Of a stretch of DNA of 64,000 bases, positions 5,332 through 57,361 are shown piece by piece (within the stretch, counting starts at the first letter, position 1; each line of letters begins with the position of its first letter). The stretch is from Phyllobates terribilis. Taxonomy: Eukaryota. The notes beneath the pieces were generated by a model. The model was not told where the DNA came from. It made no database searches and was given only the letters and a program-made list of their open reading frames with translations. Position numbers and translations under genes: made by a program. Location of the stretch: assembly GCF_046119375.1 (NCBI RefSeq), contig NW_027362769.1:143406001-143470000 (forward strand), given 5' to 3'.

Positions 5332-5374
5332 ATATTTGGAAATCAAGATCTCAGGCACTTGAGAAACTTCTTAC

Positions 5375-16097: not shown

Positions 16098-16331
16098 AAT
16101 GGCGTCCGCTCTTCCAAGGCGGGAAATCTTCGGAAATGGCGGGAATCGTCTCCCAGTGGCGGGAAACTCCATGGATGGCGGGAAAAAGCTGCAAATGGCG
16201 GACAACCGGCGGGAAACGACCTGTGATGGGGCCCGATGGCGGGGACCCTCCGGAACCGGCAGGAGACTTCTTTTTAAGGTAACGATGAACTTTTCTTCAG
16301 GCACGCAGTACCCGGTTGTTGCGGGCACGTT

Positions 16332-16349
16332 ATCCTGCCGACTACGCCA
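16332..16349 (-). promoter_or_regulatory. Primer binding site complementary to the tRNA-Ser 3' end
   Basis: TGGCGTAGTCGGCAGGAT, 4 nt after the 5' LTR. It is the complement of ATCCTGCCGACTACGCCA, the 3' 18 nt of vertebrate tRNA-Ser (from memory of that tRNA sequence). Confidence 0.9.
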
Positions 16350-17573
16350 AAGTTGACGCGCCCCCTGGGCCAGTGCTGTTGGGGATACCCGGAGCCGGAT
16401 CAGATGGGGGTTGTAGTCTCCGAGTGGCTGTGACCCGGTCCGTGCCCAGGGTGTCAAACTCAGTGTGTGGCAGTCCTTGTGATGTTACTAGATGTTCTTT
16501 TGTGTCGACTACGCCACCCGTTGATTTGCGGTCAGTACGGCCGCCGCTGCAGCAGGGTCCACTGAGGCTGGTGATGTGTGTGCAGCTTAGGTAGTATAAC
16601 CCCCAACAGGAGGGGTATAGCCTCAGGGGGTCAGTTGCAGAGGATGGGGGTTGTGGTGGTGCAGCGAGGATGGAAATGAGACTCAGAGTCGGGCTGTGCA
16701 GTTCAGGGTTTGTTTACTTACTGCAGTTGTTCTGGTCACTCCGGCCTTAAGTGACCACCCGAGCCGCGCTGCGTCCACCAGGTCCTGGACTCGGCCAACC
16801 CCCAGGTGATTCTGGAGCGTGGTCCTGAGCTCCCTTTCTGTCCTGTCCTCTTCTCTGGCCTTCCCCACCAGGGATCCACCTTTGTCCGGCTCCCTCGGGC
16901 CTCTTGGTGGTAAACCCTTGTCTCTGGGTTCCCTGACCCTATTCCTGGTCTGCCTTCCGGGTGGATTTAGTGGGTGATCGTGGCAGATCGGTCCTGCCCA
17001 CGACCTCCGGTTCCTGGCTAAGGTGTGCTGTAGCCTCTGCCAGCTTGGGATCCGGTACCCTGTTGCCAACTCTTCACCCTCTGGTCTAATTTGGGCTCTT
17101 GGAGTTCCTTCGTTCTCCCCCTCTGGGTCTTTCTTTCTCCTCTCTCTCTCTCTCTTGGCCTTGGAGCTGCTCTTCTCTTCTGCTCTCTTCCTCTGCTCTG
17201 CTCTGACAAAAGACTGACAGACTGACCCTGATCTAAGATGGTTCCCACCTTATATACTCCCTCTATGTGTGAGCTCAGGTGACCAGCACCCAATGAGCTC
17301 CTAGCACTACCCAGACTGCTCCCCCTATCTGCCCCTACACTACTGGGATGTTCCACCCCCCTCCCACTCCAGCCAGGAACAGACACTGTTGTACCTGCAC
17401 ATTTCTCTAGTGGGAGTACCATCGGTCTGTTCCCCGGAAATGGGATGTGTGTAGTGCATGCAGCCAACTGAGCTCAGTTCCACACTCCATCCTTACCCGG
17501 GAGTGGAATATCACACCTCTGGGTTGAGGTGCAATACCCCTGTAGCAGCCGAATCCTCAGGGTGCTACATAAG

Positions 17574-20300: not shown

Positions 20301-21251
20301 CTAGACACTGGAGTTTCCCGGCTTCACCAGACAGGAACGGATCAGATGCTCCTTACTACCACAGTAGAAACTGCTCCCCTCGGCCCGGCGTGTTTCTTGA
20401 CGAGACTTGACCATCTTAGTCTGGTCGATCTGCATGGGTTCGGGCGAGCGTGCCCGGGGAGTTTCTGGTTGGGAGGCAGGTTTCTGGAAAACAGGAGCAA
20501 GACGAGGAAATCTTCTCTCCTGGGTAGTCTCCTTAGCACGTTCCAGGAAACGGATGTCAATCCGCGTAGCTAGTGACACTAGGTCATCCAGGGTGATAGG
20601 AATGTCCCGGCCGGCTAGCTCGTCCTTAATCCGACCGGAAAGACCCTCCCAGAAGGTGGACACCAGGGCCTCATTGTTCCAGGCAAGCTCAGAAGCGAGG
20701 GTATGGAACTGTATGGCATACTGGCCCACCGTGAGACTCCCTTGGCGGAGACGGAGCAATGAGGAGGCAGTAGAAGTCCTTCGTCCGGGCTCATCGAAGA
20801 CCCTCCGGAAGGCAGTGAGGAAAGCCGGAAGATCGGACACCAGGGGATCCCCTCTCTGCCATAGATGGTTTAGCCATGCCAATGCTTCCCCGGTGAGGTG
20901 AGACATGATGAATGCCACCTTGGCCCGGTCGGAGGGAAACTGATGTGCCAGTAGTTCAAAGTGCAGCGTGCACTGGTTCAGAAAACCCCGACATAAGACG
21001 GGGGCACCTCCAAAATGAGGAGGCGCAGAGAGCCGGGGTCCAGAGCTGGATGCCGTGGTACTGGTAGGCCGCGGCGCCGCCGGAGCGGGTGTCGCTCGGC
21101 TCGAGGCGGGCACAGGTGGGACAGACAGCGTGTCCAGGCGAGAGTTGACAGACCGCAGGTAGGTCAGGATGGTTTCCTGTTGGGATCTCTGATGAGAAAC
21201 CTCCTGGTACAGGTCAGCAAGCGAAGGAGCCTGGGGACCACCGGGTTCCAT
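20301..21251 (-). CDS. Gypsy Gag (retrotransposon gag domain, degenerate CCHC knuckle)
   Basis: CRGFLNQCTLHFEL...AKVAFIMSHLTGEALAW...LRQGSLTVGQYAIQFHTLA; FYCGSKEHLIRSC at the C-terminus. ATG lies just after the 5' LTR. Confidence 0.85.
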   Translation of the reverse strand: MEPGGPQAPSLADLYQEVSHQRSQQETILTYLRSVNSRLDTLSVPPVPASSRATPAPAAPRPTSTTASSSGPRLSAPPHFGGAPVLCRGFLNQCTLHFELLAHQFPSDRAKVAFIMSHLTGEALAWLNHLWQRGDPLVSDLPAFLTAFRRVFDEPGRRTSTASSLLRLRQGSLTVGQYAIQFHTLASELAWNNEALVSTFWEGLSGRIKDELAGRDIPITLDDLVSLATRIDIRFLERAKETTQERRFPRLAPVFQKPASQPETPRARSPEPMQIDQTKMVKSRQETRRAEGSSFYCGSKEHLIRSCLVKPGNSSV

Positions 21252-24200
21252 GGCCCATGCAAACTGTTACAGATACGGGTAGTGCTGCGGTGCAAGGAGG
21301 GACCAGAGGGGCGTAACTAGGTATCGACTCGGACTGACCAAGGTCGCACGGTGGCTCAATCGACTCCATGAACCAGGGAAGGACCGAGCAGAGGGACATT
21401 CTCCGGGTAGGCAGGCAAGCCTGGCCCATAGACAGACTGGCGGGTTAGGACCGTAGGCAGACCGTCGGGCTGGAGAGTGCACTTGGCTGGTGGAGACAGG
21501 TAGTCAGGCTGGCGGACTGGACTGGTAGTCAGGCTGGCGGACTGGACTGGTAGTCAGGCTGGCGGACTGGACTGGTAGTCAGGCTAGCAGCGGGACCTGA
21601 GGGCTGAAGCAGAGTTTAGAACGCAAAGCTACAACCTTGCACGGGCACCTCCATTTTGGAGGAGGTGCCTTTTATATGAGAAGTCCTCTGGCCATTGGCC
21701 GGTGACTCCTTAGGATGGCGCGCGCGGCTCCTTTAAGAGGGAGGGAGCGCGTGCGCGCCCTAAGCACAGTGCCCGGGAAGCTGCGCGCGACAGCAGCTGG
21801 AGAGCCAGAAGACGCCGGGCCAGGCGGTAAGGGGGATGGCGTCTCTGCCTGTCAGGGGGCCGAGACGCCGATGCTACATCAGGGACAAGATCATAGACCT
21901 GCACAAAGCTGGAATAGGGCTACAAAACCATAAATAAGACGCTGGGTGAGAAGGAGACAACTGTTGGTGCAATAGTAAGACAATGGAAGAAATACAAAAT
22001 GACTGTCAATTGACATCGATCTGGGGCACCATGCAAAATCTCACCTCGTGGGGTATCCTTGATCATGAAAAAGGTGAAAGTTCAGCCTAAAACTACACGG
22101 GGGGGAACTTGTTAATGATCTCAAGGCAGCTGGGACCACAGTCAGCAAGAAAACCATTGGTAACACATTATACCTTTAAAGGTTTAAAATCCTGCAGTGC
22201 CTGCAAGGTCCCCCTGCTCAAGAAGGCACATGTACAGGCCCGTCTGAAGTTTGCCAATGAACACCTGGATGATTCTGTGAGTTATTGGGAGAAGGTGCTG
22301 TGGTCAGATGAGACAAAAATTTAGCTCTTTGATATTGACTTAACTCGCCGTGTTTAGAAGAAGTACAACCCTAAGAACATGGTCCCAACCGTCAAGCATG
22401 GTGGGGGAAACATTATACTTTGGCGGTGCTTTTCCAGCAAGACAATAACCCAAAACATACAGCCAAGCCAACAAAGGAATGGCCCAAAAAGAAGCACTGT
22501 AAGGTCATGGAGCAGCCTAGCCAGTCTCCAGACCTTAATCCCATAGAAAACTTATCAAGGGAGCTGAAGCTCCGAGTTGCCAAGCGACAGCCTCAAAATC
22601 GTAATGATTTAGAGATGATCTGCAAAGAGTAGTGGACCAAAATTCCTCCTGACATGTGCGCAAACCTCATCATCAACTACAAATAATGTCTGACTGCTGT
22701 GCTTGCCAACAAGGGTTTTGCCACCAGGTATTAAGTGTTTGCCAGAGGGATCAAGTACTTATTTCTTACTTAAAAATGCAAAAAAAAATATTTAATTTAT
22801 ACAAAGTGATTTTCTTGATTTTTTTTTTTTTGGGATATTCTACCTCTCAATATTAAAATTAACCTACCCTTAAAATTATAGACTGTTCATGTCTTGGTCA
22901 GTGGGCAAACTTTCAAAAACAGCAAGGGATCAAATACTTATTCCCCCCCCCCTCTGTGTGTGTGTATGTATATATTAATATTCCATGAGCTGGAATCGGA
23001 GGTGTATTTACCATACGCTCACGGTGACTTCCCCAATAACCGGCCTAGTAGTGGAAGCAGTTGCGGCCTCGTCCATTACTTGTCAGTCATTTGTGTAATT
23101 GTCCTGACGAATGAAGGCAGCGTCCCTTCATAAATTGGTGTTAGCAATGGGATCTGTGTGACTCACACGGCTGCGTCTCATTGACAACTGGTGGCAGCGG
23201 TGGGATTTATGCGATTTCCCCAGTGTCATCTTTGACAAACTGGTGACAGCAGTGGGATCTGTGTGACACCCTCCCCGATGTCCTCCTAGACATATAGGAT
23301 CTGTAATACTCATTTTCTTATGTGGATCCAAGGAGGCGTGCTTCTTCCAAGTGCACTGACACACCCCCAGTGCACCTTCAGCCTGATTTGCATATGACTT
23401 CTACGCTTGATTTCTCATGACTGGTACATCAGATCTCTACAAAAAAGGTATCTTTTTAATTGGGGGACAGACATACCACTTCTTATATATTTAAAAAAGC
23501 GCTGATAAATTCCCTTCGAATCAGAGCTTTAATTTCTCTTTTGAGTATAGGATATTTCAATTTTAGTAAGTTGTTTTTTGTACACAAGTTATAAAATCAA
23601 TGCTACATAATTGAATTTTACAGTTTGCTGCAATGGGAAGTCTGATTGTGAAGCTTTATGGAGTATCGTTATTGTAGAAATTATTACTGCGATTAGTATA
23701 ATTTGAAGCATACACAAACAATGTGTATACATAGCATAACATAACATAACATACAATGTTTCCTGTCTAGGAAGTACAGAATTGTGCATGCTTGGGGGGA
23801 GAGTGGTCCCACTTTTATAAGACATTCTCATGTCTGTGAGTTAATCATGCAGGTTTGCAATGAATGAGCACCAAGACCTACACACTGTGATACTGGCAGC
23901 TGCTGATCTAAAAGAGATTTGCACCCCCTGTTGGACACTTCTGGAAAAACAAAAATTTGAGTATATACGACTTTATATGTCTATCGCACTGTATTGTCCC
24001 ACTCCTATAGTAAATCACATAACTACACTTTCATCATCTAGCAAATTACAATGTAAATCAGTCATTACAATTGTCTGCAAGGAGCTCTTTAATAACCTTG
24101 TAGTTATTCTTGTGCCTCCCGACAAAAAAAGGAAATCACAGCACATGCTTGGTTTAGTTCCCAATATCCACCACAAGAAAACAAGTAGCACATCATAGTT

Positions 24201-24960: not shown

Positions 24961-26031
24961 CATCACAGTGTCATGCTGAGGGTGGTCATACTGGGCCCTA
25001 GTACAAGTTTTGCTGTTATAACCTATGGCCCTCCAGCTGTTGAAGACCTACAACGCTCAGCACGCCTGGAAGCTGTTTCTGTGAAAGCTAAAAGGTGAGA
25101 ATTTATGAAACGAGTCCTAGTAATATCGGACGCCATCATGGATCTGCTGATAGCATGTGCGTTTCACATAGCTTGTGATTGAATACCTGCATGTAGTGAA
25201 TCTGCTGTGCAATCAGTGACACGGCCGGCTTACTGCGGGAGCTGATGAGGCTGCCTCAGGCCAAATTCTCAAATAAATGCACATAAATAATAGATCTGTT
25301 GTATCCCAAATTACAGGCACATCCTTGGTAACAGCTGCACATTATACCGAGGCCTAAATTATTCAGTACGAAAATTACTACAACTTTTTTTATATATACT
25401 TTTATGTTTTATCATGGAGGGAAATCCTTCACTCTTAAAGAAAAAATAAACTTTCATTTTTATTTTATTTTTACATTTTGACCAGCATGGAAAGTAATGA
25501 AATTTTGCAAATCCCTAGGATTTGTCTTCAACCCTGCAAGTGGCTTCCAAATCCTTGCATTTCCACAATCTATTTGTCTGCCTTCAGCTACATTGATATA
25601 GGAGAGACGTGTCAATCTTGGGCAGTGGGCGGGGAGAAGATGCCGGGGACACTCCTGTCCGACTAGTTTATAGCACGGTCTCAATCCCCGGCGGCTTTTA
25701 AAGTATGTTTTTTATGAATTGCCGCAAAGTTTTCAGAGTTGAACGTACCTGGCAGAGATAATATAGCTAATGTTTAATACATGCTACCTATGGATTTGGC
25801 AGCATTTATCAGCTGACAGGTTCTCTTTAAAATCAATAAGAAAACCAGTCTTCAGTAAGCTCTTCAGCTCCCTCTAGTGTTGACTACAGGCAGATGGAAT
25901 TTTATCATTTACATCTGTGACAAGTGAAGCAGGGAATTTAATGTTCTGTATCTGAGAAGCAGAATCACCAGCCCTGTAAATAAATATTTTTAAATTAATT
26001 TTATCCACTTAACTAAAGACCATGGTATATA

Positions 26032-27677
26032 CAGATAAGTCCATATATATTTGGACAGAGACAACATTTTTTATAATTTTGGTTCTAGACATTACCACAA
26101 TGAATTTTACACAAAACAATTCAGATGCAGTTGAAGTTCAGACTTTCAGCTTTCATTTGAGGGTATCCACATTAAAATTGGATGAAGGGTTTAGGAGTTT
26201 CAGCTCCATAACATGTGCCACCCTGTTTTTAAAGGGACCAAAAGTAATTGGACTATTGACTCCAAGGCTATTTCATGGACAGGTGTGGGCAATCCCTTCG
26301 TTATGTCATTCTCAATTAAGCAGGTAAAAGGCCTGGAGTTATTTGAGGTGTGGGGCTTGCATTTGGAAGGTTTTGCTGTGAAGTAAACATGCGGTCAAAG
26401 GAGCTCTCCATGCAGGTGAAACAAGCCATCCTTAAGCTGCAAAAACAGAAAAAACCCATCCGAGAAATTGCTACAATATTAGGAGTGGCAAAATCTAGTT
26501 TGGTACATCCTGAGAAAGAAAGAAAGCACTGGTGAACTCATCAATGCAAAAAGACCTGGGCACCCACGGAAGACAACAGTGGTGGATGATCGCAGAATAA
26601 TCTCCATGGTGAAGAGAAACCCGTTCACAACAGCCAACCAAGTGAACAACACTCTCCAGGAGGTAGGCGTATCAATATCCAAATCTACCATAAAGAGAAA
26701 ACTGCATGAAAGTAAATACAGAGGGTTCACTGCGCGGTGCAAGCCACTCATAAGCATCAAGAATAAAAACGCTAGACTGGACTTTGCTAAAAAACATCTA
26801 AAAAAGCCAGCACAGTTCTGGAAGAACATTCTTTGGACAGATGAAACCAAGATCAACCTCTACCAGAATGATGGAAAGAGAAAAGTATGGCGAAGGCGTG
26901 GTACAGCTCATGATCCAAAGCATACCACATCATCTGTAAAACACAGCGGAGGCAGTGTGATGGCTTGGGCATGCATGGCTGCCAGTGGCACTGGGTCACT
27001 AGTGTTTATTGATGATGTGACACAGGACAGAAGCAGCCGAATGAATTCTGATGTATTCAGAGCCGTACTGTGTGCTCAGATCCAGCCAAATGCAGCCAAA
27101 CAGATTGGTCGTCGTTTCATACTACAGATGGACAATGACCCAAAACATAAAGCCAAAGCAACCCAGGAGTTTATTAAAGCAAAGAAGTGGAATATTCTTG
27201 AATGGCCAAGTCAGTCACCTGATCTCAACCCAATTGAGCATGCATTTCACTTGTTAAAGACTAAACTTCAGACAGAAAGGCCCAAAAACAAACAGCAACT
27301 GAAAACCACCGCAGTGAAGGCCTGGCAGAGCATCAAAAAGGAGGAAACACAGCGTCTGGTGATGTCCATGAGTTCAAGACTTCAGGCAGTCATTGCCAAC
27401 AAAGGGTTTTCAACCAAGTACTAGAAATGAACATTTTATTTACAATTATTTAATCTGTCCAATTACTTTTGGTCCCTTTAAAAACAGGGTGTCACATGTT
27501 AAGGAGCTGAAACTCCTAAACACTTCATCCAATTTTAATGTGGATACCCTCAAATGAAAGCTGAAAGTCTGAACTTCAACTGCATCTGAATTGTTTTGTT
27601 TAAAGTTCATTGTGGTAATGTCTAGAACCAAAATTAGAAAAATGTTGTCTCTGTCCAAATATATATGGACCTAACTG
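26032..27677 (+). mobile_element. Full-length Tc1-like DD34E transposon, copy A (one 2-bp deletion near the N-terminus)
   Basis: TA-flanked long TIRs (CAG.TA.GTCCATATATATTTGGACAGAGAC). ATG at 26389, frameshift at ~26498, then open to 27424 with WTDETK and MDNDPKH-(34)-E motifs. Confidence 0.93.
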
Positions 27678-28391
27678 TACCATATTTTATGCTTCTTCTA
27701 CTAATACGCCCCCTTTTTTTTACAGCTTTGCTTCTGAAGAAGATGGCAGCGTTGTGCCCTGCATGTCCATTATATATCCATCATGGAGCATGTCAGGGAC
27801 TTCGGAGCGGGCTCAGAAGCATAGCCACAGAGGACAGATGCCAGCTGTACTATATAGCTGACATCTGCTTCTAACAACAGCGGGCAGTGAACCTGGCGAT
27901 TGCTGCTGTTAACCTCCTTAAATGCCGCTGTCAATTGCTAACAGTGGTATGTAAGCGCTGCAATCCAGCCCAGATGTCAGTTTGGGCAGCCATTGGCTTC
28001 CATGCAATGGAAATGCGGGGAACCGATGGGCTGCAATGACAACCAGGGGCCGGCTGCATGCCCCCGTGTTTGTCATGTGATCTACTATGTGATGTCCAGT
28101 CTGTAGCTGGACATCATGGAAGACAGTGATTTTTACTATGTACAGCAATGCTGTGGTATTGCTGTACATAGTAGAGGCGATCAGATGATCTTAGGTTGAA
28201 GTCCCCTAAGGGGACTAACAAAGTAAAAAGTAAAAAAGTTTTTGAAAAAGTTAAAAAAAAATATATAAAAATTCTAATCACATCCCTTTTCCCCGGTTAA
28301 CAATAAACAAAGGTAACACATTTGATTGAATAAACTTCCAGTCCTCAAAGTGTTCAACCCTTTTATATGCCACGATAAATGGTTCCTCTAA

Positions 28392-35123: not shown

Positions 35124-35384
35124 CATTTCTGGTGACTACCTCTTGAAGCTCATCAAGAGAATGCCAAGAGTGTGCAAAGCAGTCATCGAAGCAAAAGGTG
35201 GCTACTTTGAAGAACCAAGAATATAAGACATATTTTCAGTTGTTTCACACTTTTTTGTTAAGTATATAATTCCACATGTGTTAATTCATAGTTTTGATGC
35301 CTTCAGTGTGAATGTACAATGTTCAAAGTCATGAAAATACAGAAAACTCTTTAAATGAGAAGGTGTGTCCAAACTTTTGGTCTG
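35124..35384 (+). mobile_element. Isolated TIR of the DD38E Tc1-like family
   Basis: Matches 10801-11062 and 40433-40680; ends CCAAACTTTTGGTCTG|TA. Confidence 0.85.
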
Positions 35385-35410
35385 TACTGTGTATATATAT
35401 ATATACACAT

Positions 35411-36470
35411 TACAGCCACTCTTACTGCGTGGAAAGTTGATTAAAATGGCGGTGGATGAGGGACTTGTGAATTGGATAATTGACTACCTGTCGGATAGGC
35501 CACAGTTTGTTAGGTGGGGGACGGCTACATCAGATAGTGTACTGAGCAGTGTCGGAGCCCCGCAGGGAACAGTGCTGTCGCCATTCCTCTTTACATTGTA
35601 CACAGCTGACTTTCAGTATAAATCAGACCGTTGTCACCTCCAGAAGTACTCGGATGACTCTGTGATAGTTGGCGGTATTGGGAAGGACCAGGATGAAGAG
35701 GAATATAGAATGGTGGTTGCGGACTTTGTAGTATTGTGCCCGGCTAACTATCTAGAACTAAATGTTAAGAAAACCAGGGAGTTGGTGATGAGCTATGGAA
35801 GGTGCAAGAAGGTATGCCTACCTGTTACCATTGACGGTCAGGATGTGGAGATGGTGGACAGTTTCAAATATTTGGGGGTTTACCTGGATAGCAAGCTAGA
35901 CTGGAAGTGCCACATGGAGAAGGTCTACAAGAAGGGGATGAGTAGATTGTACTTCCTAAGGAAGTTAAGGTCTTTTAATGTGTGTGGCAAAATGCTTGAG
36001 GTGTTCTACCAATCCATTGTGGCTAGTGCCACCTTTGCGGCAATAATTTGCTGGGGTAACAGTGTGCGTGTTGCTGACGCCAACAAGCTCAACAAACTTA
36101 TAGAGAAGGCTAGCGCGACGGCGGGCCTACAGCTTGGGATTTTTGAAGAGGTGGTAGAGGATAGGATTAAGAAGAAGTGCAGAGCTATAATGGGCAACAA
36201 CACACACCCGCTTTATGAACTGTTTGCGAAACAGAAGAGCACATTCAGCAATCGCCTAATACAACTAAGGTGTAAAAAGGAAAAATACAGGAGATCGTTT
36301 GTTCCAACAGCTATGGGGGTGTTTAACAAATGTCTGAAAAGCAATGTCTAAAGCATTCCAAATGTTATGTTATTATATGTGTCATGTTCGAGATCTGTGT
36401 TCTGCTGCTGTGATACCGCAATTTCCTCCGGGATAAAAATAAAGTATATCTTATATCTTATCTTATCTTA
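35411..36470 (+). mobile_element. 5'-truncated non-LTR retrotransposon (Rex1/Babar-like), RT C-terminal half
   Basis: GAPQGTVLSPFLFTLYTADF, KYSDD, LNVKKTREL, FKYLGVYLD and SRLYFLRKLRSF motifs; stop at 36351; AATAAA followed by a (TCTTA)n tail. Confidence 0.85.
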
Positions 36471-36481
36471 TATATATATTA

Positions 36482-38127
36482 CAGTTAGGTCCATGTATAT
36501 TTGGACAGAGACAACATTTTTCTAATTTTGGTTCTAGACATTACCACAATGAATTTTAAACAAAACAATTCAGATGCAGTTGAAGTTCAGACTTTCAGCT
36601 TTCATTTGAGGGTATCCACATTAAAATTGGATGAAGGGTTTAGGAGTTTCAACTCTTTAACATGTGCCACCCTGTTTTTAAAGGGACCAAAAGTAATTGG
36701 ACAATTGACTCCAAGGCTATTTCATGGACAGGTGTGGGCAATCCCTTCGTTATGTCATTTTCAATTAAGCAGCTAAAGGCCTGGAGTTGATTTGAGGTGT
36801 GGTGCTTGCATTTGGAAGGTTTTGCTGTGAAGTAAACATGCGGTCAAAGGAGCTCTCCATGCAGGTGAAACAAGCCATCCTTAAGCTGCAAAAACAGAAA
36901 AAACCCATCCGAGAAATTGCTACAATATTAGGAGTGGCAAAATCTACAGTTTGGTACATCCTGAGAAAGAAAGAAAGCACTGGTGAACTCATCAATGCAA
37001 AAAGACCTGGGCGCCCACAGAAGACAACAGTGGTGGATGATCACAGAATAATCTCCATGGTGAAGAGAAACCCCTTCACAACAGCCAGCCAAGTGAACAA
37101 CACTCTCCAGGAGGTAGGCGTATCAGTATCCAAATCTACCATAAAGAGAAGACTGCATGAAAGTAAATACAGAGGGTTCACTGCACGGTGCAAGCCACTC
37201 ATAAGCATCAAGAAGAAAAAGGCTAGACTGGACTTTGCTAAAAAACATCTAAAAAAGCTAGCACAGTTCTGGAAGAACATTCTTTGGACAGATGAAACCA
37301 AGATCAACCTCTACCAGAATGATGGAAAGAGAAAAGTATGGTGAAGGTGTGGTACAGCTCATGATCCAAAGCATACCACATCATCTGTAAAACATGGTGG
37401 AGGCAGTGTGATGGCTTGGGCATGCATGGCTGCCAGTGGCACTGGGTCACTAGTGTTTATTGATGATGTGACACAGGACAGAAGCAGCCAAATGATTTCT
37501 GATGTATTCAGAGCCATACTGTGTGCTCAGATCCAGCCAAATGCAGCCAAACTGATTGGTCGTCGTTTCATACTACAGATGGACAATGACCCAAAACATA
37601 AAGCCAAAGCAACCCAGGAGTTTATTAAAGCAAAGAAGTGGAATATTCTTGAATGGCCAAGTCAGTCACCTGATCTCAACCCAATTGAGCAGCATTTCAC
37701 TTGTTAAAGACTAAACTTCAGACAGAAAGGCCCACAAACAAACAGCAACTGAAAACCACCACAGTGAAGGCCTGGCAGAGCATCAAAAAGGAGGAAACAC
37801 AGCGTCTAGTGATGTCCATGAGTTCAAGACTTCAGGCAGTCATTGCCAACAAAGGGTTTTCAACCAAGTACTAGAAATGAACATTTTATTTACAATTATT
37901 TAATCTGTCCAATTACTTTTGGTCCCTTTAAAAACAGGGTGGCACATGTTAAGGAGCTGAAACTCCTAAACCCTTCATTCAATTTTAATGTGGATACCCT
38001 CAAATGAAAGCTGAAAGTCTGAACTTCAACTGCATCTGAATTGTTTTGTCTAAAATTCATTGTGGTAATGTCTAGAACCAAAATTAGAAAAATGTTGGCT
38101 CCGTCAAAATATATATGGACCTAACTG
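36482..38127 (+). mobile_element. Full-length Tc1-like DD34E transposon, copy B
   Basis: Near-identical to 26032-27677. ATG at 36838, N-terminus intact, CGA>TGA stop at 37342-37344 and a 1-bp deletion at ~37692. TA flanks. Confidence 0.93.
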
Positions 38128-38146
38128 TATATATATACATACAATA

Positions 38147-42450: not shown

Positions 42451-45400
42451 TGTGGTAAGTCGTCTGCTTCCGGAAGTAGATTCAGGAACCGTATTTTCTC
42501 TGCAGGCTTTATTATGTGGCATAAAGCCCTGCAGCTCCAGCAGAAATAAACCCAGCCTTACTGGCAAAACAACAGAACAAAAGATAAACTATAGCACAGT
42601 CCATAGCAGTGTGGGATTCACCCACACAGGTTGTAGTCCCAGCTTTCAGCTCCTCTCTGATCTGTGGCTTTTCCAGTCTGGAGACCTTGCCTCTCCAGAC
42701 AAAACAACAGAAAAAAAAAATGGTGACTGAGCATTTAAACCTTGCTCAGTCACACCCTGATGGGAGGTAGTGTGAATGGCTTCCCACCCTCTTTGCCATT
42801 CACATAAAACCACACACCCTTTAGTGAGTTGACCCCTAGCATATAACTTGCTGGCAGAAATTTTGCAGGTTTAGTTCACACAGGCTAGCAACCTGAGTGA
42901 CACATACCTCCCCTCGTATATCACACCTGTGACTCTGTCACATATTTCCCCCCTCTGCCCAAAGCCCCAGGTTTGGACACCTTCCAATACCAGACAGGGA
43001 ATTCTAGAAAGGGCATCAGCGTCCCTGTGTAACTTCCCTGGCCTATGCTCCGCGTGAAAGTTAAAGTCCTGAAGAGCTAGGAACCATCTAGTTACCCTGG
43101 CATTTTTACCCCTCTTTTCCCTCAACCATCTCAAAAGGGCATGGTCTGACATCAACTTAAACTTCTGGCCTAGTAGGTAATATCTTAGTGTATCTACGGC
43201 CCACTTTATGGCTAAACACTCTTTTTCTACTATAGCGTAGTTTTTCTCGCAGGACGAGAGCTTCCGGCTTAGATAGAGAATGGGATGTTCTTACCCATTT
43301 ATCTCTTGAGAGAGTATGGCTCCTAGGCCACCTTCTGAAGCATCTGTGTGGACCACAAATTCTTTCTTAAAGTCTGGTGCAACCAGGACCGGCTTCTTAC
43401 ACAGTGCTAGCTTCAACTGTTGAAACGCCGTCTCTGTTTCCTCCGTCCACTTCACCATGGTTGATCTGGTGTCTTTTAGGAGATCCGTCAGTGGCGTGGC
43501 CATCGTGGAAAAATTTGGGATAGACCGGCGGTAATATCCCACCATTCCCAGGAACGCTCTTACTTGCTTCTTGGAGAGTGTTTGCGGCCAGGTCTGGATT
43601 GGCCCCCTGTAGTCCGAACGGCATCCGAGTGTATTGAAAGCACCCATCAGGTGTCGTGAAAGCCGTCTTCTCCTTGGTCATCTGTGACATGGAGATCTGC
43701 CAATAACTCTTCGTCAGGTCAAGGGTGGTGATATACCTTGCTGGTCCCAGCCTCTCGATGAACTCGTCGACGCGGGGCATTGGGTATGCGTCGCACTTAG
43801 ATAACTCATTCAGCCGGTGGTAGTCATTACAAAACCTCCACTATCCATTGGGTTTTGGCACGAGGGCGATTGGGCTCAACCAACCAGTCTTTGACTCCTC
43901 TATCACACCGAGGTCTAACATCCTCTTCACCTCGGCCGAGATCACCTCTCGGCGTGCTTCAGGAATCCGGTACGGCTTCAGGTTCACTCTTTCATATGTG
44001 GCTCTGTTAGCACGTCATGCTCTACCACTTGAGTATGCCCCGGCAACTCTGAGAACAGATCACAATTCTGCTGTAGCAGTTCTCGACACTGTTGCTTCTG
44101 GGCCGGCGATAGTCTCTGCTATAGTGACCTCTTATACCTTGCCTTCGGGAGCGGCTCTCAGACAAGGAGCTCCCACGGGTTCCTGATCTCGCCACAGCTT
44201 GAGAAGGTTTACATGGTACACCTGGTGCGGCTTTCTTCAGCCAGGCTTGTGGACTTGGTAGTTCACTTCATTAAGTTTCTCCACCAACTCATACGGGCTT
44301 TGCCACTTGGCCAGGAACTTACTTTCGACAGTGGGAATGAGAACCAGAACGCAATACCCAGGCTGGAACTGTCTCAGTCTGGCTGACCGGTTATACACCC
44401 TCGCCTGGGCTTCCTGCGCCCGGAGATGTTCCTTCACAAGGGGTATCACTTTCGCCATTCTCTCCTGTAACTGTTCGACATGTTCGAAGATGCTCTGGTG
44501 AGGCGTGACCTCAGCCTCCCAGGTTTCCTTGGCTATGTCTAGGAGACCCATTGGATGTCAGCCATACAGAAGTTCGAACGCAGAGAAGCCAGTGGAGGCT
44601 TGAGGAACTTCTCTGATGGAGAAGAGCAGGAACGGTAGCAGATAGTCCCAGTCACATCCATCCTTCTCGACGACCTTTTTGAGCATTGCTTTCAGGGTCT
44701 TATTAAAGCGCTCCTCCAGGCCATCGGTCTGCGTATGGTAAACGGAGGTTCACAGCTGGGTAATCTGAAGAACTTTACACATCTCCTTCATCACCTTGCT
44801 CACCAATAGGGTTCCTTGTCCGTCAGGATTTCATTCGGCAGGCCGGTCCTGGCAAAGATGTGGACAAGTCCTCGGGCTATGTTACTACTGGACGAGTTCC
44901 TTAAGGGTACCACTTCGGGGTACCGGGTCACATAGTCCATGCCCACCATGATGTACTGGTGGCCCCGGGCCAATTTAACTAAGGGACCCATGAGGTCCAT
45001 GGAAATCCTCTCAAAGGGAACTACGGAAGTGGAAGGTGGGCACGGTTATCTGGCAGGTGGGGCAGGATCTACAATTGTTTATGATCTCCAGGTGACATCC
45101 TGGCCAGTAAAACCTCCTCACTATTTTCTCCTGAGTTTTTTCAAATCCTAGCGGTCCCCCCAGAATATCTGAGTGGGCCATGTCCAATACCCTCCGACGG
45201 TATGGCCCTGGAACTAACAGCTGTTCCACTACCTCTTCACCTTTTAATTTGGCTACCCGGTATAATTGCTCCCCCTGAACTCTAAAGTGTGGGTACCTGG
45301 TGTCCGCCCCTGGCTCTAGAGCAACACCATTACAAACCGTAATATTGTACCACGCCTCTTTCAAGGTCAAGTCCCGAACTTGAGCTGACCCAAAGTTCTC

Positions 45401-45990
45401 TCCGGGCACCTCTAATTCAGGGACGTCGACTCCCTTGGTCACAGTCTCGTCCTCATCGCCGACAAGGACACACAGTGGGAACTCATCCACTTCCGATGTC
45501 AACCGGGGTATTTCTCTAGGGTCTTGGCTTTTGTCCCCGTGACTCAGTCTGGATCCCTTCCCCCACAAGTCCCAGAGCAAGGGAAAATTGCGCCCCAATA
45601 CGACCTTGTGGGATTGGGCGCCACAGTCTGTTCCGACTGTCACTCTGGCCACCGGGTAGTTCTTGGTGTCCCCATGTATACAGCGGACGGCCACAGATTT
45701 GGTAGGGATCAGCTGGTGGGGAATGGTGACACTGATTAAGGTTACCAGACTCCCGGAGTCCAACAGCCCCAGGACCATCACTCCATTAACGGATACGGCA
45801 CACGTCTGCGGCCCTTCGCCGGGTTGACAGTCCACACTGCAGGCTGGGTAAGCATAGTAAGAACATCGTCTGCCTAGGCTGCAGTCCATTGGCTCAGCTA
45901 ATGTATGACACTGGGCGGCTACCTGTCCCGGATTGCGACACCGCCAACAGATCACATCCTTCACAACAGTCCTTGCAGCCCCTTCAGTGG
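42451..45990 (-). mobile_element. 5'-truncated Gmr1-type Gypsy element (gag knuckle-PR-IN-RT-RH), decayed
   Basis: CWRCRNPGQVAAQC knuckle and LLDSGS protease; integrase Zn-binding region (45000-45200) and core MDLMGP...MDYVTRYPE (44800-45000) lie upstream of RT (43400-43950) and RNase H (TDASEGGLGAIL, DADALSR). PPT at 42943-42957; 3' LTR 42451-42942. Confidence 0.88.
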
Positions 45991-46075
45991 AAGTGAAATA
46001 ATGAGCGGTGTGAGAAAAAGAAGAAAGAGAAAGAGCAAAGGAGCAAAAAGAGACAAAGACAAAGAAGAAGAAAGG

Positions 46076-46079
<4 letters not shown>

Positions 46080-46112
<33 letters not shown>
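46080..46112. repeat. (AG)n microsatellite within a purine-rich tract (~46010-46170)
   Basis: Direct reading. Confidence 0.95.
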
Positions 46113-46117
<5 letters not shown>

Positions 46118-47224
46118 CAGAAGAGAGAGGTACACAAGAGAGAAGGGGGAAGGAAGAGAAAGAGAGAAGTGTAGTAGACACGTTATTGTACTAGGTTACC
46201 ATTATTGGTATAAACATGGTTTTGTAAAAATGATATAAGGTTACTTTTGTTAAAAAAAATAAAAATATCCATATTAAAAAAAATCAATATGATGTCTTTG
46301 TTTACATGCCGCTGGCATGTGTCTGCTGCAGCCAATCAGTTGCTGCAAAGGTCATATCTATGCTGAACTCCGGCATCATGGCTCCCATCGCTGAGCGGTG
46401 ATGTCAGCTTTGTATCTACATGGACCCATTCCTTTGCTCAGCTTAACTCCTTCTCCACTGCTAGGATGTGACAGAGCTGCCGGTGAAGCAAATATGTGTA
46501 ATGTGTCTAGTTACATATGTATGTGTGTGATGTGTTTGTATGTGTAGTGTGACATATCCTAAGATGGAAAAAAAACATACATGTTTGTGCAATACTCTGT
46601 CACGAGATGATATATGTGGCGCCATCCAGTGGTTGTAATTTGTTTTGCAGCCTGTGAAAGGTTTTGCTAGCATTTTGCATTATTTTAATTGCATGTGTAT
46701 TACATATGTGTGTGAATATATATGTATCACATTACAGTAGTATGTACATTTATGTATAACACTTTTTCTTTTAGTGTACCAATTCTAAAAGTTATATACG
46801 GTATGTTTGCATGTGTACATTTTATGTTGATGGCCACTGTACCTGTGCACCAGGTGAAGAAAAGCTTTGTTACATGTTTGCTGTACCATATAGTAGTTAC
46901 TATCAATAGTTCTAATTTTTTGTAAGCCTTTTGTTTGGTTAATTATTGGGATTTTTCTAGGTAGATAACAGAACTAATGAGAATTAAATGGTAGTAAATA
47001 AAAAAAATAATCTGTAATGTATTTTCAGATGGAGATTCTCAGTAGTTTTCATTTGTCCATTACAATAGACTTGGATTGGAGCAAATGGTAAAAGAAAACA
47101 CCTTTTGGAATCCTGGCAGTGTGCCATAGGAAATATTTTTCTTATTATTGTCTTATTACTGTGTGGCCACTGGGTGTCACTGCAGTGCCATATATACATT
47201 TATGTTCGTCTCTTGGTCTGCTGC

Positions 47225-49790: not shown

Positions 49791-52700
49791 CTGAATGAAA
49801 ACCTGAGTTCAGAGTGTGTCCCAATACTTTTGTCCATATAGTATAATTTCATACTGTTTATTATAATACTAGCTCTGTCATTTCATGCACAGTTGAAGTT
49901 TTTCTCATCTTCTGACATGTTTTATGACTTCACACTTATGGGCTAATTTAAGATACCAAAATTGTATCCCCACACATGAAAAGGAAAAAATATTTTTAGT
50001 TATTTTGTTTATTCTATATGTATTTATTTGTATTTTACGCTTAATCTACGTTCACACGTTCAGTATTTGATCAATATTTTACCTCCGTATTGAAGGGAAC
50101 CTGACAGTTGATAGATGGTCATCATGTATCAGACACTAGCAGCATGATTTCAGCCGTTACAGTATGTTTAACTCTGAAATGCTGCAACGTTTCAGAGAAT
50201 AATATACACTGTAAAAGCCACCGGGGACTGAGCTACACAGGAAACTAGTCAGATGGGCGGATCCCCGGTGGTTTCTCCCCGCCCGCTGCCAGTGACTGAC
50301 AGGTCTGTCCCTATACATGCACACAGGGAGAGACCTGTCACTCCAGGGTAGCAGGCGGGGAGAAACCGCCGGGAATCCGCCTGTCCGACTAGTTCCTTTG
50401 CAACTCGGTCCAAAAATTATTTAAATTAATATTTGCTTTTGTGCTGTTTTTTTGCTAATATGTCGAAAACAGTAGATCCTAAAATGCTGAGACCCGATGT
50501 TAACCCCCCACCAAGTGCCTGTTCTACCTATGTGACAAATTTAGGGCAGATTGGTCTGGAGAAAGGGCAGCCGCTGTGTTGCCCCCCATTGTTTTCACTG
50601 CACAGTAGCTTACTTTGGGTGGGACGATGTTGATGACATCACTGCTCTAAAACTACAGGTCCCGTAATGACATTGTGTTGAGTTGGTAGATCACGACCAC
50701 AAACATTAATATAAATTCTCTTTAAATTGAATCTATCACTAGATTTCAAAATAACTGCAATGATATTAAATAGATTCTGGGGTACTTACTTGGAAACTCC
50801 ACATCAGATTGTATAATACTGATATTAAGATGAGTGTTTTATGCTTATTTTAATATTCGGTAGGAAAAGTTACATAATGAATTATTTATAGTGCTTCTCT
50901 TGCAGGAATTTTCAAAATAAGTATATCAGCTTCATCAGGTCCAAGAGATCCATAATAATTTATGTATCTTATATTATAAAATCTAATGACATCTGCTTGA
51001 CTGCTTGAAATATAACTCATTGGACTTCATTTATCTCAACCTTCTAAGAGAAAAACTGTCTTTGTTATCCACAGCAACTAATCAGAGCTCAACTCTCATT
51101 TTTTAACCCTTTACTGTCAAGGCCAGTTTTAATTTTTGGACTTCCGTTTTTTTTTCCCTTCTCCTTTTTCCAAGAGTCATGACTTTTTTTTATTTTTCTA
51201 TTTCATACCCATGTGAGGTCTTGTTTTTCTCTGTCGTTTTGAACTACAGCATTTCCTTTACCAAATAATGTACTGAAAAATGCAAATAAAATTTCAAGTG
51301 AGGTGAAATACTGGAAAATATATAATTCTGTTATTGTTTTTTGAGGTTTTGTTTGTACGGTGTTCACTTTGCAGTAAAATGGACCTGATTACCTAATTCT
51401 CCAGGTCAGTATGATTACGACAATATTAACCCCTTTCTGACCCAAGGTGTACTAATACATACAGTATATGCTGCTGCATCTCTATGCTACTGTATATAAG
51501 CAATCAGGCTGCAAAAAGTGAAAGTCCCATAGTGGGACATAGTGTACAAGTAAAAAAAAGTGCTAGAAAGTGAAAAAAAAAATGTAAATATATATATATA
51601 TATATAAAAAATCCCCCATGAAATAAAAATATACTGTACCCATAAATACATATTATTATGAAAAAAACAAAAAAAACAATAAAAGTACACATTTTGTATC
51701 GCTGCGTCCGGTACGACCTGACCTATAAAAATGTCCCACTAGTTAACCCTTTTAGTGAACACGGTAAAAAATAAAAATAAAAGACGAAGCAAAAAACAAT
51801 GCCTGATCATACCATCAAACAAAAAATGGAATAAAACGCGATCAAAAAGACGAATATAAAAAAAAATGGTACCGCTAAAAACGTCATCTTGTCCCGCAAA
51901 AAACAAGCTGCCATTCAGTGCCATTAGCCCAAAAATAATAGTTATAGCTCTCAGTATAAAGCGATACAAAAAAAAATATTTTTTTCTATAAAATAGTTTT
52001 TATTGTGTAAAAGCGCCAAAAAAAAAAAATGGTACCACTGTAAACATACTGACCCAAAGAATAAAGCTGCCTTATCCATTTTACCACACGCAGAACGGCA
52101 TAAAAAAAAAAAAAAAAATTCCTGAATTGTTGGTTTTTGTTTAGAATGCCTGCCAAAAATCGGAATAGAAAGCAATCAAAAAATGTCACTTGCCCAAAAA
52201 TGGTACCAATAAAAACGTCAACTTGTCCCGCAAAAAACAAGCCATCACATGACTGTCGGCCGAAATATGGAAAAATTATAGCTCTCAAAATATGGCTATG
52301 CAAAAATTAGTCTTTGCAAAAAATATTTTTTTTAGTGTGTGACAGTGACGCGCCCCCTGGGCCATATTCGTTAGTGGGAATATCCGGAGCCGGATCAGAT
52401 GGGGGTTGTAGTCTTCCGAGTGGCTGTGACCCGGTCCGTGCCCAGGGTGTCAAACTGAGTTGTATGTGGCAGTCCTACAGATGTTATAAGTTCTTTATTT
52501 GTCGACTACGCCACCCGTTGTGTTGCGGTCACTGTGGCCGCCGCTGCAGCAGGGTCCGCTGAGGCTGATGGTGTAGGTGCAGCTCTGGTGATATAACCCC
52601 CAACGGGTGGGGTATAGCCTCAGGGGGATCAGGTGCAGAGGATGGGAGTTGTGGTGATGCAGTGTAGACGGCAATCAGAGACAGAGTCGGGTTATGCAGT

Positions 52701-53975
52701 TTAGGATGTTTACTCACTGCTGATGTTCTGGTCACTCCAGCTTCGAGTGACCTCCCGAGCCGTGCTGCGTCCACCAGGTTCTGGATCCAGCCAACTCCCA
52801 AATAAGTCCGGAGCGTGACCCTGAGCTCTCCTTCAGTCCTTTCTCTGGCCGTCCCCACTATTGATCCACCCAGGTCCAGCTCCCTCGGGCCTTCTGTTGG
52901 GACACCCTTGGCCTTGGGTTCCCTGACCCTCCACGTGGTATGCCTTCGTGGTGGATGTGGTGGGTGACCGTGGCAAACGCTGCCCACGGTCTCCGGTCTC
53001 TGGCTGGGGAGTGTTTTTACCCCCACCAGCTTGGGTTCCGGTACCCTGTGCCGACTCTTCACCCGGGGATTTAGTTTGGGGTCTTAGAGTCCTTTTCTTC
53101 TGTGCCTCTGGGTCTCTCTCTCTCTCCTCTCTCACTCTGGGTCTCTCTTCTCCTCTGCTCCTGACTTTCTCTCTGCAACTGACCCTGTTCTTAGTTGGTG
53201 CCCACCTTATATACACCCTCTATGTGTGAGCTCAGGTGACCAGCACCCAATGAGCTCCTAACTTTACCCAGGCTGCTCCCCCTATCTGCCCCTACACTAC
53301 TTGGGATGTACCACCCCCCTCCCACTCCAGCCAGGAACAGACTCGGTCGTACCTGCACATTTCTAAGTGGGAGTACCGTCGGTCTGCTCCTCGGAAATGG
53401 GATGTGTGTAGTGCATGCAGCCTACCGAGCTCAGTTCCACACTCCATCCTTACCCGGGAGTGGAATATCACACCTCTGGGTTGAGGTGCAATACCCCTGT
53501 AGCAGCCGAATCCTCAGGGTGCTACATTCCCCCCTGGTAAATCACAGCACGTCCTCGGGCTGTAAGACATAACACCAAAAACATACAAATTTTTCATAAA
53601 CATATAAAACATATAAAACAACATATATATATATATCAATATAAAACATTCTCGTCGCCTCTGGCTCCTCCTCCGGTCACTGTGCAACGTGTGACCGGGT
53701 AAAGTGCGACAGTCTCTCTGGAAAACTGGTTTTCCTATAAAACCGGTAGGGGGCGCTTTAGGAAGCGCAACTATATACAGGGGAAGTTGGCCGCTCTCAG
53801 TCCTCGGCCAGGTAAAGGGAAGGGAATGGCTGCTCACAGTCCTCAGCCTGGTATGAATACGGAATAACGGGTAAACAGTTCACTCATGCTGGTCCCAACG
53901 GGGACTATATATATGTAGCAACAGTTTCTTTGGTACCCGGTCGGGTAACTATTTACATCTACTGCTCTGCCGCAC

Positions 53976-55803
53976 TCAACGGCGTCTTCCTCCTGCTCTT
54001 TGCTTGTAGCTGGTTGTAACTTCAGACCCGTCCGGGTCCTCTTGCTCCTCCTCCTCGCACCGCAACTCCTCCTCCGTCAGGCGATGCACATGGAGGGCGT
54101 AAGGTCCTTTGGCACACTTGTGCCGGGTAAAGGTGACCTCGTCCCCGATATAAAGGTCACGACCTCTGTGCCCCTCCGGCAGATGGGACTCCACATCTCT
54201 GCGCGTGACAAAGACGCCGCCGGGGGTGTTGTTGTCTCTGATGAAGCCCCACCCATGCTGCAGGTTAAACTTTATTACAGTCCCGGTGGTACGGGGACTG
54301 TGCGCTGCACGGGGGTCCCTCCTGGTTCGGCTCTTCTGCTCGGCGCTCCATACTTGGGCCTGTTGCTCCCGGACCCGCCTCTCTCTCCGCTCCCTCGCAA
54401 ACTCTTCGAGCTGCTGTCGGCAACACTCAGCACGCTCCGCTGCAGCTGCCCTGGTTTCCTGAGTGAACCCCATTAGGTCTTCTCCGGTGGGGTCCCACTC
54501 AAATTGGGCTTCTTCCAGAGGAGGCGAGACCCGTGCCACGGGCTTCGGAGCCGGAATCAGGGGCTCACACAAGGGCCCTAGTCTCTGCTGCCGTTCCAGC
54601 TCATGGAATTCTTCGGGCCAGATGAAGGGCCGCCCGTCCGGCCATGTGAGCTGGCTGAACAAGTCCTCCCCCAGGTGTGGCACCCTTGGTTTTACGGGCG
54701 CGGGCGCGGTGGTGGTGGCGCCCGGATTGCCCAGGCCTTGCGGCCAGGCCTGGGGCACCTGGAAGGTGAAGGGCACCGTTAATACGGCGGCGCCCTGGGC
54801 TACCTGGCCTTGCGACCAGGCCGGAGGCTCCGCGGAGGTAGGGGGCGCTGTTGGTGATGCGGCGCCCGGGGGTACTAGGCCTTGCGACCAGGCTGGTGGT
54901 ATTTCCTGCTTTGTCACGCTCCGGGTCGAGGCGCGTGACGTCACAGGGGTCGCTGCGGCGGCTTCCGGTCGGGGCCTAGTCCATAGCGGTGACATGGCGG
55001 CTACGGGCACAGCAGGGGGACTTTCGGGCTCTGCGACGGGGAGCTGGGGCAGGTGGGCGGTTTCCCGGCTTGGGGTATAGGCGTCCCCTTTACCTGCCTC
55101 CTTGCGTCCGGCTCCCTTCTCGGCGCCGTCTCCGGCCTTTGGTCCTCCCGCGCCATCCTCAGAGGCGGTCTGTTTCCTCTTCCAGGGTAGCGTGCTCCGT
55201 TGACTGGTCTCAGCTTGCTGGGCCATCTCCCGGCTCCATTCCGCCAATATCTCGCGCTGTACCCGGGCCATCCTCCGTGCGAGGCCCTCTAGGGCAGTCT
55301 GTGCACACTCCCGGTCTCGGGGGAGCTGTGCAAGGACCTCCACTAGGCCTAGTGGGGTCGTGGTGTCTAGCAGGCTCCTGACCAACGGGTCAGCTGCTCT
55401 GCTCTTCTTCCAGCAGGCTCCTGGCCAGCGGGCCGGTGCTGCTCCGCTCTCCTTCCTCGGTCTCTAGCAGACTCCTGGCCAGCGGGCCGGTGCTGTTCTG
55501 CTTTCTCTCCATCTCCGGGTAAGCTCCTCCGCTACTCCTCTCCAGGCTTCTTGCCTCCGGGTGCGCTCGCTCCAGACTGCTCCAGGCGGCACCCATCTTC
55601 GTTCTTTTCTTTCGTCTCCTCCCACTTCGAGGGCGGTCCCGGGGCAACTCGGTGACTGTCAGCTCCAGGGGTAGTTCTTTCACGCTGACAGACACCTCCA
55701 GCATCACAGTCTCTGTTGGTGGGGGCGGTTTCCACTTTTGGCGCCATTTTCTGTCCTGGCCCACGATGGGAGGCGGCCTCTTGCCCTCCTTTGGCACGCC
55801 CAT
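53976..55803 (-). pseudogene. ~609-codon ORF of LTR copy 2 with one frameshift (~55390) and a C-terminal cold-shock domain
   Basis: ORFs 55390-56082 and 53976-55385 join into one protein collinear with the copy 1 ORF. CSD at ~54078-54290: TTGTVIKFNLQHGWGFIRDNNTPGGVFVTRRDV...LYIGDEVTFTRHKCAKGPYALHV. Confidence 0.8.
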
Positions 55804-56040
55804 AATGGCGTCCGCTGCTCTTCCAAGGCGGGAAATCTTCGGATTTGGCGGGAAGAGTCGCCCAGTGGCGGGAAACTCTGCAGATGGCGGGAACAAGCTG
55901 GAAATGGCGGACAATCGGCGGGAAACGACCTGTGATGGGGTCCGATGGCGTGGACCCTCCGGAACCGGCGGGAGACTTCTTTCTGAGGTAAACTTGCACT
56001 TTTCTTCAGGCACGCAGTACCCGGGTGTTGCGGGCACGTA

Positions 56041-56058
56041 ATCCTGCCGACTACGCCA
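56041..56058 (-). promoter_or_regulatory. tRNA-Ser primer binding site
   Basis: Same 18-nt TGGCGTAGTCGGCAGGAT, 4 nt from the 5' LTR. Confidence 0.9.
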
Positions 56059-57361
56059 AAGTTGACGCGCCCCCTGGGCCATATTCGTTAGTGGGAATAT
56101 CCGGAGCCGGATCAGATGGGGGTTGTAGTCTTCCGAGTGGCTGTGACCCGGTCCGTGCCCAGGGTGTCAAACTGAGTTGTATGTGGCAGTCCTACAGATG
56201 TTATAAGTTCTTTATTTGTCGACTACGCCACCCGTTGTGTTGCGGTCACTGTGGCCGCCGCTGCAGCAGGGTCCGCTGAGGCTGATGGTATAGGTGCAGC
56301 TCTGGTGATATAACCCCCAACGGGTGGGGTATAGCCTCAGGGGGATCAGGTGCAGAGGATGGGAGTTGTGGTGATGCAGTGTAGACGGCAATCAGAGACA
56401 GAGTCGGGTTATGCAGTTTAGGATGTTTACTCACTGCTGATGTTCTGGTCACTCCAGCTTCGAGTGACCTCCCGAGCCGTGCTGCGTCCACCAGGTTCTG
56501 GATCCAGCCAACTCCCAAATAAGTCCGGAGCGTGACCCTGAGCTCTCCTTCAGTCGTTTCTCTGGCCGTCCCCACTATTGATCCACCCAGGTCCAGCTCC
56601 CTCGGGCCTTCTGTTGGGACACCCTTGGCCTTGGGTTCCCTGACCCTCCACGTGGTATGCCTTCGTGGTGGATGTGGTGGGTGACCGTGGCAAACGCTGC
56701 CCACGGTCTCCGGTCTCTGGCTGGGGAGTGTTTTTACCCCCACCAGCTTGGGTTCCGGTACCCTGTGCCGACTCTTCACCCGGGGATTTAGTTTGGGGTC
56801 TTAGAGTCCTTTTCTTCTGTGCCTCTGGGTCTCTCTCTCTCTCCTCTCTCACTCTGGGTCTCTCTTCTCCTCTGCTCCTGACTTTCTCTCTGCAACTGAC
56901 CCTGTTCTTAGTTGGTGCCCACCTTATATACACCCTCTATGTGTGAGCTCAGGTGACCAGCACCCAATGAGCTCCTAACTTTACCCAGGCTGCTCCCCCT
57001 ATCTGCCCCTACACTACTTGGGATGTACCACCCCCCTCCCACTCCAGCCAGGAACAGACTCGGTCGTACCTGCACATTTCTAAGTGGGAGTACCGTCGGT
57101 CTGCTCCTCGGAAATGGGATGTGTGTAGTGCATGCAGCCTACCGAGCTCAGTTCCACACTCCATCCTTACCCGGGAGTGGAATATCACACCTCTGGGTTG
57201 AGGTGCAATACCCCTGTAGCAGCCGAATCCTCAGGGTGCTACAACAGCTGTCAATCATAAAAACCCGATATGAATCTGGCATCACTCTAATCACACCGAA
57301 CCAAAGAATAAAGTCGTCTAATCACTTATACCGCATGAGGAAAGGAGTAAAAAATAAACTC

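Follow-up and report, generated by a model that had tools for sequence, protein, structure and literature searches.

Probable parallel loss of a conserved cold-shock domain segment between short direct repeats in a family of young non-autonomous frog LTR elements

In a family of frog LTR elements, an old and conserved segment that carries a cold-shock domain (CSD) has very probably been deleted at least twice independently, each time between two short direct repeats that encode Pro-Asp-Gly (PDG). The deletions likely occurred by reverse transcriptase (RT) template switching, and the shortened elements then kept transposing. Two copies of the family lie in the window (the whole 64,000-nucleotide stretch of DNA that was analysed), one with the domain and one without it. 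Their features are as follows.

52346-57243, minus strand: copy 2, a non-autonomous LTR element of the long (domain-bearing) form, 4,898 bp
53976-55463, minus strand: 3' part of the copy 2 open reading frame (ORF), 495 codons between stops; the 5' part is in another frame at 55390-56166
54027-54035, minus strand: downstream 9-bp repeat of copy 2, coding for PDG, the equivalent copy being retained in copy-1-type short junctions
54036-54641, minus strand: segment missing from short forms, 606 bp, comprising a proline-rich linker, a long predicted helix, the CSD and a short helix
54084-54287, minus strand: CSD, from PF00313, sequence matches to YBX1, YBX2 and CspA, and Foldseek
54633-54641, minus strand: upstream 9-bp repeat of copy 2, coding for PDG, with 5,011 copy-2-type and 7,365 copy-1-type long borders genome-wide
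56041-56058, minus strand: primer-binding site of copy 2, the same site following the LTR end in most loci that reach so far
13275-17569, minus strand: copy 1, 4,295 bp, a domain-less (short) element from a sister lineage
14946-16484, minus strand: ORF of copy 1, 512 codons without interruption, matching no Pfam family
14988-14996, minus strand: fused deletion junction of copy 1, a single repeat, with 278 exact junction matches genome-wide
16332-16349, minus strand: primer-binding site of copy 1

Copy 1 and copy 2 are both young LTR elements of the non-autonomous kind. The LTRs of copy 2 (52346-53526 and 56063-57243) are 99.83% identical and the element is flanked on both sides by an ACAG target duplication, while those of copy 1 (about 13275-14488 and 16354-17569) are 99.5% identical, with the target duplication TAAG. 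The LTRs are paired and have TG...CA ends, a primer-binding site starting with TGG (which we take to match a serine tRNA) lies just 3' of the 5' LTR, and a purine run precedes the 3' LTR. Between the LTRs is an internal region of 1.9-2.5 kb with one ORF. Among six element ORFs scanned, the CSD of copy 2 was the sole Pfam family, and no gag or pol match was found in the two elements. The ORF of copy 2 is split by a frameshift; 25 of its 29 closest relatives are open from the primer site to the repeat. The ORF begins within the 5' LTR and continues through the LTR end and the primer-binding site, where it reads QLWRSRQD (window 16330-16484 and 56040-56166). Searches for an autonomous helper returned 19 loci by the primer-site pattern, all of them related non-autonomous elements, and no match among 30 PNMA-gag loci. 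Elsewhere in the window are two Tc1-like transposons (26026-27679 and 36475-38129) that are 97% identical and have 228-bp inverted repeats, a gypsy gag ORF (20301-21266), a protease-integrase pol fragment (45011-46195) and a LINE RT fragment (35359-36351). A 610-codon ORF on the minus strand (5371-7203) has a repeat-rich stem and no Pfam match, and presumably resembles the large first coding exon of a GALNT5-like polypeptide GalNAc-transferase.

The 9-mer CCCGTCCGG occurs on the plus strand of the window at 14988, 54027 and 54633 and nowhere else. In copy 2 the two occurrences are 606 bp apart within the ORF at 53976-55463, and read on the minus strand as TWPDGRP and EDPDGSE; the single occurrence in copy 1 reads HKCPDGSEE. 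A preliminary description made from the sequence alone had given these positions, this spacing and these Pro-Asp-Gly readings, and had described the two copies as collinear on both sides with the segment absent from copy 1, all of which we confirmed. The BLAST match between the copies breaks precisely at the repeat, with 13273-14997 aligned to 52344-54036 and 14988-17569 to 54633-57243, both blocks being about 82% identical. The same junction as that of copy 1 is spanned by 39 other loci at 90-94% identity. We considered HKC in copy 1 as a remnant of the domain and rejected this, HKC being a private variant of the family's HTC. Taken alone, a 9-bp repeat around the domain is no more than chance would supply: six exact repeats of at least 9 bp bracket the domain in the internal region of copy 2, against 6.3 expected from first-order Markov simulations. 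What makes the repeat real is that 623 genomic copies have their junction exactly there.

These copies were counted by matching exact sequence patterns for junctions and borders across the 10.6-Gb genome. The upstream border of the module, as we refer to the segment, occurs 12,376 times and the fused junction 623 times (about 5%). Separated by type, there are 278 short junctions against 7,365 long borders (3.6%) for copy 1 and 345 against 5,011 (6.4%) for copy 2, the latter pattern being taken from copy 2's own upstream bases. Such counts of exact patterns are minimum values, and because the patterns are not quite alike, the short-form shares are approximate. Reversed-pattern controls gave no matches. 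The short form is therefore not a single copy genome-wide, which had been named as one way in which the preliminary reading could fail. The other, that the copy 1 junction is an assembly artefact, does not hold at the level of the family, since a single mis-join does not account for junctions that number in the hundreds, are dispersed and lie in elements with LTR pairs of their own. Contigs of three sequencing runs (X3, X9 and X12) covered copy 2 in short, uninformative pieces, with no joint across the module.

A CSD profile search of the genome gave 33,380 first-look candidates, of which 150 were scored and 30 loci fetched. Twenty of the fetched loci belong to this family or its relatives, eight to one multi-CSD gene and its processed copies (a gene that we take to be CSDE1-like), one is an unplaced YBX-like remnant and one lies in an unrelated context. 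In a search with the module, it lay within family flanks at all 30 of the best loci (from the best 40 scored of 2,575 candidates). Two observations concern CSDs outside the family. L061-L068 (C1:734.43-734.45 Mb; C2:702.79-702.81 Mb) represent a multi-CSD host gene, presumably resembling CSDE1/Unr; C2 carries exons of it, and C1 carries copies that lack introns and are partly duplicated. L071/L391 (C4:791520011-791520214) is a divergent CSD with a helix before the domain and has no DNA similarity to the LTR of this family; an RT fragment belonging to another class lies 4 kb away.

Was the segment lost or gained? The preliminary description had offered two readings: a deletion by microhomology or template switching, with later propagation, and the capture of a cassette with a 9-bp target duplication. 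Of these, the deletion and its propagation stand and the capture does not, and the recurrence of the deletion in the lineage of copy 2 had been missed. The 606-bp segment was lost by deletion, not gained by insertion, because short forms are nested among long ones, the module is kept across a distant subfamily, and the long kin of copy 1 carry a 600-bp module. The nesting comes from a tree of 880 upstream bases in 194 loci, the outgroups of which were located via the domain and are thus biased; a second set was accordingly chosen by LTR end and primer site. Twenty-three tandem-array copies and three duplicates were left out before this tree was built, and L061-68, L070, L071, L074, L081, L083, L085 and L086 were dropped as host genes or as unalignable at both borders. 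In a subfamily 70% identical to copy 2, chosen regardless of the domain, 15 of 19 loci have the whole module; two others share a 674-bp deletion, one has other deletions and one is unaligned, the PDG-to-PDG junction occurring in none of the 19. Copy 1 is 94-97% identical to its nearest long relatives in both flanks, against 80-81% to copy 2. Two long loci (L093 and L094) match the flanks of copy 1 at both borders except for its one private base. Because these nearest long relatives have a 600-bp module with CCGGATGGG upstream, a repeat that agrees with the downstream one at eight of nine positions, copy 2 is not the parent of copy 1.

Capture of a cassette with a 9-bp target duplication, with short forms either ancestral or precise excisions, could draw on the fact that both repeats read CCGGACGGG even in a member of the 70%-identical subfamily (L358, where they are 609 bp apart), and domain capture by retroelements is documented in bird endogenous retroviruses (ERVs; PMC12287698, in the part covered here). 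We nevertheless judge it extremely unlikely. Long forms are the majority, short forms are nested and not basal, the L069 group has degenerate repeats, the element's own target duplication is 4 bp, family flanks surround the module at all 30 loci examined, and the more distant elements L070, L083 and L085 have the domain without the module. By HMMER, named protein homologs came only from poison frogs, namely Phyllobates terribilis (86%, possibly the same species and so not independent evidence) and Ranitomeya and Anomaloglossus (30-40% over the aligned module), and the proteins of other frogs have the helix and domain in common but not the PDG borders. A word-index protein search with the module, limited in length, gave no match, and ESM Atlas gave only scores under 0.8. 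An ancient capture that predates the split of these subfamilies is possible.

The description of the domain as a swappable cassette also did not survive, as gain was never seen, the borders are not favoured crossover points, and deletions with other breakpoints remove the domain as well. Picking loci by the downstream border gave three such deletions among 30, and picking by the upstream border gave one among 60 (a locus that is also one of the three); further examples, some out of frame, occur in L092, L342/L345 and L352. L342 and L345 (C1:10755900-10765800 and C1:85088900-85098800) have in common the 674-bp out-of-frame domain deletion, which starts in an upstream repeat unit and not at PDG. 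A recombination scan of long copies had its lowest correlation (0.32) just upstream of the module, with lows of 0.37-0.47 elsewhere and values of 0.61-0.71 at the downstream border. The idea that the module is swapped as a unit was rejected on these values, as similar lows lie elsewhere and none lies at the downstream border. The set used here and for nearest-neighbour comparisons omitted tandem partners, three loci with a 49-bp duplication and two long loci with shortened modules. Selection for frame on the deletion was likewise rejected as unnecessary, since both repeats code for PDG in one frame and the shared out-of-frame 674-bp deletion is found twice.

How many times did the deletion at the repeat occur? 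Short copies of the two classes have different bases at position -1 and at three others of the nine upstream positions, each class resembling its own long lineage, and GTTAC/GTAAC tails are found in 25 of 30 copy-2-type shorts against two of 27 copy-1-type shorts. Because flanks of the copy-1 and copy-2 types are kept right up to the repeat, these sequences require at least two independent deletions. Rare short copies with a third upstream type (two of 100 among the matches listed) may represent a third event. A tree cannot count events beyond "at least two", since the family is mosaic along its whole length. This mosaicism would also be expected under a single deletion carried to other lineages by recombination between co-packaged RNAs, a process that probably explains most of the variety inside each short class, and exchange of the tails, which have 15 bp in common with the junction, is seen among long copies as well. 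A single deletion is nonetheless unlikely, as the two short classes differ at the very base that adjoins the repeat, and one could be converted into the other only by a crossover onto a long template within the 9 bp, an event no different from a new deletion.

On another reading, short copies would have arisen one by one after integration, through microhomology-mediated DNA repair, and would be dead ends. One-off short-homology deletions do exist in the family (L172 and L176), and short copies are scattered over the tree. The short copies are, however, not a random draw from the long ones. By hand count of the first 100 matches listed for each pattern, CAGCACAC of the copy-1 type was found in 29 long and no short copies (Fisher p 3e-10) and CACACGTGG of the copy-2 type in 43 long and two short copies (Fisher p 3e-13). 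Short copies also had short nearest neighbours in 19 of 25 cases (permutation p 0.001) and in 19 of 29 (p 0.0002). LTR pairs were present in 19 of 20 short loci, at 99.3-100% identity, and in 19 of 20 long loci, where two of the pairs were partial or nested, and an exact 4-bp target duplication was seen at 13 of the 17 short loci scored and at 16 of the 17 long ones. These near-identical pairs bear out the earlier view that both forms transposed recently. Long and short loci are equally young (median LTR identity 99.92 and 99.83%, p 0.19), leaving little time for 5% of copies to acquire the same junction separately, and L342 and L345 have another deletion in common. We thus consider copy-by-copy deletion very unlikely and conclude that the shorts transposed as short forms. 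From the haplotype skew and the short-to-short nearest neighbours, we infer that a few founders spread by transposition and recombination.

Several further arrangements were seen among these loci. The tail of 12-20 codons after the downstream PDG is hypervariable, with more than 15 types (window 53976-54026 and loci L241-L300), and such tails are exchanged between lineages in long and short copies alike. The short copies L194, L201 and L202 have a 49-bp duplication that restores a second PDG repeat directly after the junction. Long forms also occur in head-to-tail arrays with shared single LTRs and a period of about 3.7 kb, at C56:1822827-2353318 (L097-L120 and L360) and C285:137620-148615; C56 has 28 matches, and the two array units that were read have intact 712-codon ORFs. 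Short copies form tandem pairs at L034/L035, L049/L050, L203/L204 and L211/L212.

The bases of the repeat itself suggest how independent deletions could have arisen. Among copy-1-type long borders, the upstream repeat was CCGGATGGG, with T at position 6, in all 100 listed, and the downstream repeat is CCGGACGGG; copy-1-type shorts carry the C of the downstream repeat in 97 of 100 listed. In minus-strand synthesis, the polymerase of a helper element would copy the downstream repeat first and then jump to the upstream repeat, where 10 bases would pair with one G-U wobble and the C would be retained. Homologous recombination between co-packaged RNAs would later reshuffle flanks and tails, which would account for the many tail types on short copies. 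The C/T site is a CpG, and C is found in a few long copies (40 matches, most in tandem arrays), so the parent possibly had a perfect repeat. It is also possible that microhomology repair at the DNA level altered a source copy before it transposed, which would give the same junction. An exact and recurrent junction could also suggest an intron, with short forms made from spliced RNA, but GT...AG is found in no register within the repeat on either strand, which excludes splicing.

The mechanism of deletion is in itself ordinary; what is new is the parallel loss and the spread. Direct-repeat deletion by RT template switching is established in retroviruses, where deletion declines with repeat length and non-homologous recombination is at least 1000-fold rarer (PMC3187697, in the part covered here). 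Given this length dependence and rarity, events at 9-10 bp must be rare founders. As in the frog family, one repeat and the intervening sequence are lost and recombination between co-packaged genomes is heavy; the retroviral work measured repeats of tens to hundreds of bases in vectors, whereas the frog deletions used 9-10 bp of homology in an endogenous non-autonomous element, in two lineages in parallel, and are present in hundreds of copies.

We then asked what has been lost. The Pfam CSD (PF00313) spans residues 393-460 of the copy 2 ORF (E 4.3e-7, 30.2 bits against a cut-off of 27), and the copy 1 ORF matches no Pfam family. The predicted model (pLDDT 74) is a five-stranded OB barrel with Foldseek TM scores of 0.88-0.90 to CspA, and both borders of the segment fall in unstructured linkers that flank a 48-residue helix and the barrel. 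The same fold (TM 0.77-0.90) is found in YBX1/YBX2, Lin28 and bacterial Csp proteins, and the loop insertion of YBX is present in the frog domain, though identity is only about 30-36%. On the aromatic RNP1/RNP2 surface GWGFI and VFV are kept, whereas the Trp before RNP1 is replaced by Lys and the His of RNP2 by Thr, two residues with which YBX1 binds RNA. Of 60 long loci taken without selection, 57 have the module open and in frame. Across 15 pairs of real copies, which share ancestry, are not independent and do not include L089, dN/dS was 0.06-0.23 in the domain, 0.08-0.45 in the N-terminal part of the module and 0.35-0.63 upstream. These ratios indicate strong purifying selection on the domain, which is the most constrained part of the protein. 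Selection on the protein of an element that lacks enzymes would imply a benefit from the protein to its encoding element or to close kin. The domain is dispensable in cis for transposition, and because short copies still transpose, its help must be partial or supplied in trans. Its most likely role, in which our confidence is evenly balanced, would be to bind RNA and so stabilise or load the element's own RNA. A domain that binds this RNA and gives a partial copying advantage would make its loss tolerated but rare.

Non-autonomous LTR retrotransposons and their internally deleted derivatives keep LTRs, primer site, purine tract and target duplication, lack enzymes, and spread as shorter derivatives, but usually have no selected ORF. 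The frog family differs in that its ORF is under purifying selection and that the derivative drops the best-conserved part. The closest parallel in the domain itself is found in birds, where 46 ERVs, classified by RT, carry PF00313, which was captured several times (PMC12287698, in the part covered here). Both are LTR retroelements with this domain; the frog family, in contrast, has no gag, pol or env match, its domain ends its only ORF, it has more than 12,000 copies, and it loses the domain, while the part of PMC12287698 covered here reports no such loss. The part of PMC12208295 covered here does not mention cold shock, and our literature search found no description of this family or of the deletion, though article supplements may list such elements.

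The family thus offers a natural knockout repeated in parallel: one genome contains hundreds of matched elements, equal in age, that either have or lack the domain. We tentatively suggest, as a possibility that we hold to be less probable than not, a parasite of three tiers, in which the cold-shock protein of an enzyme-less element would protect its own RNA or load it into helper particles, domain-less hotspot mutants would cheat on the protein of their siblings, and a ceiling of about 5% would follow from the protein favouring the RNA that encodes it. Such a natural knockout allows direct tests of what a captured, predicted RNA-binding domain does in a non-autonomous element, in a family whose recent copies exceed 12,000 in a genome of 10.6 Gb.
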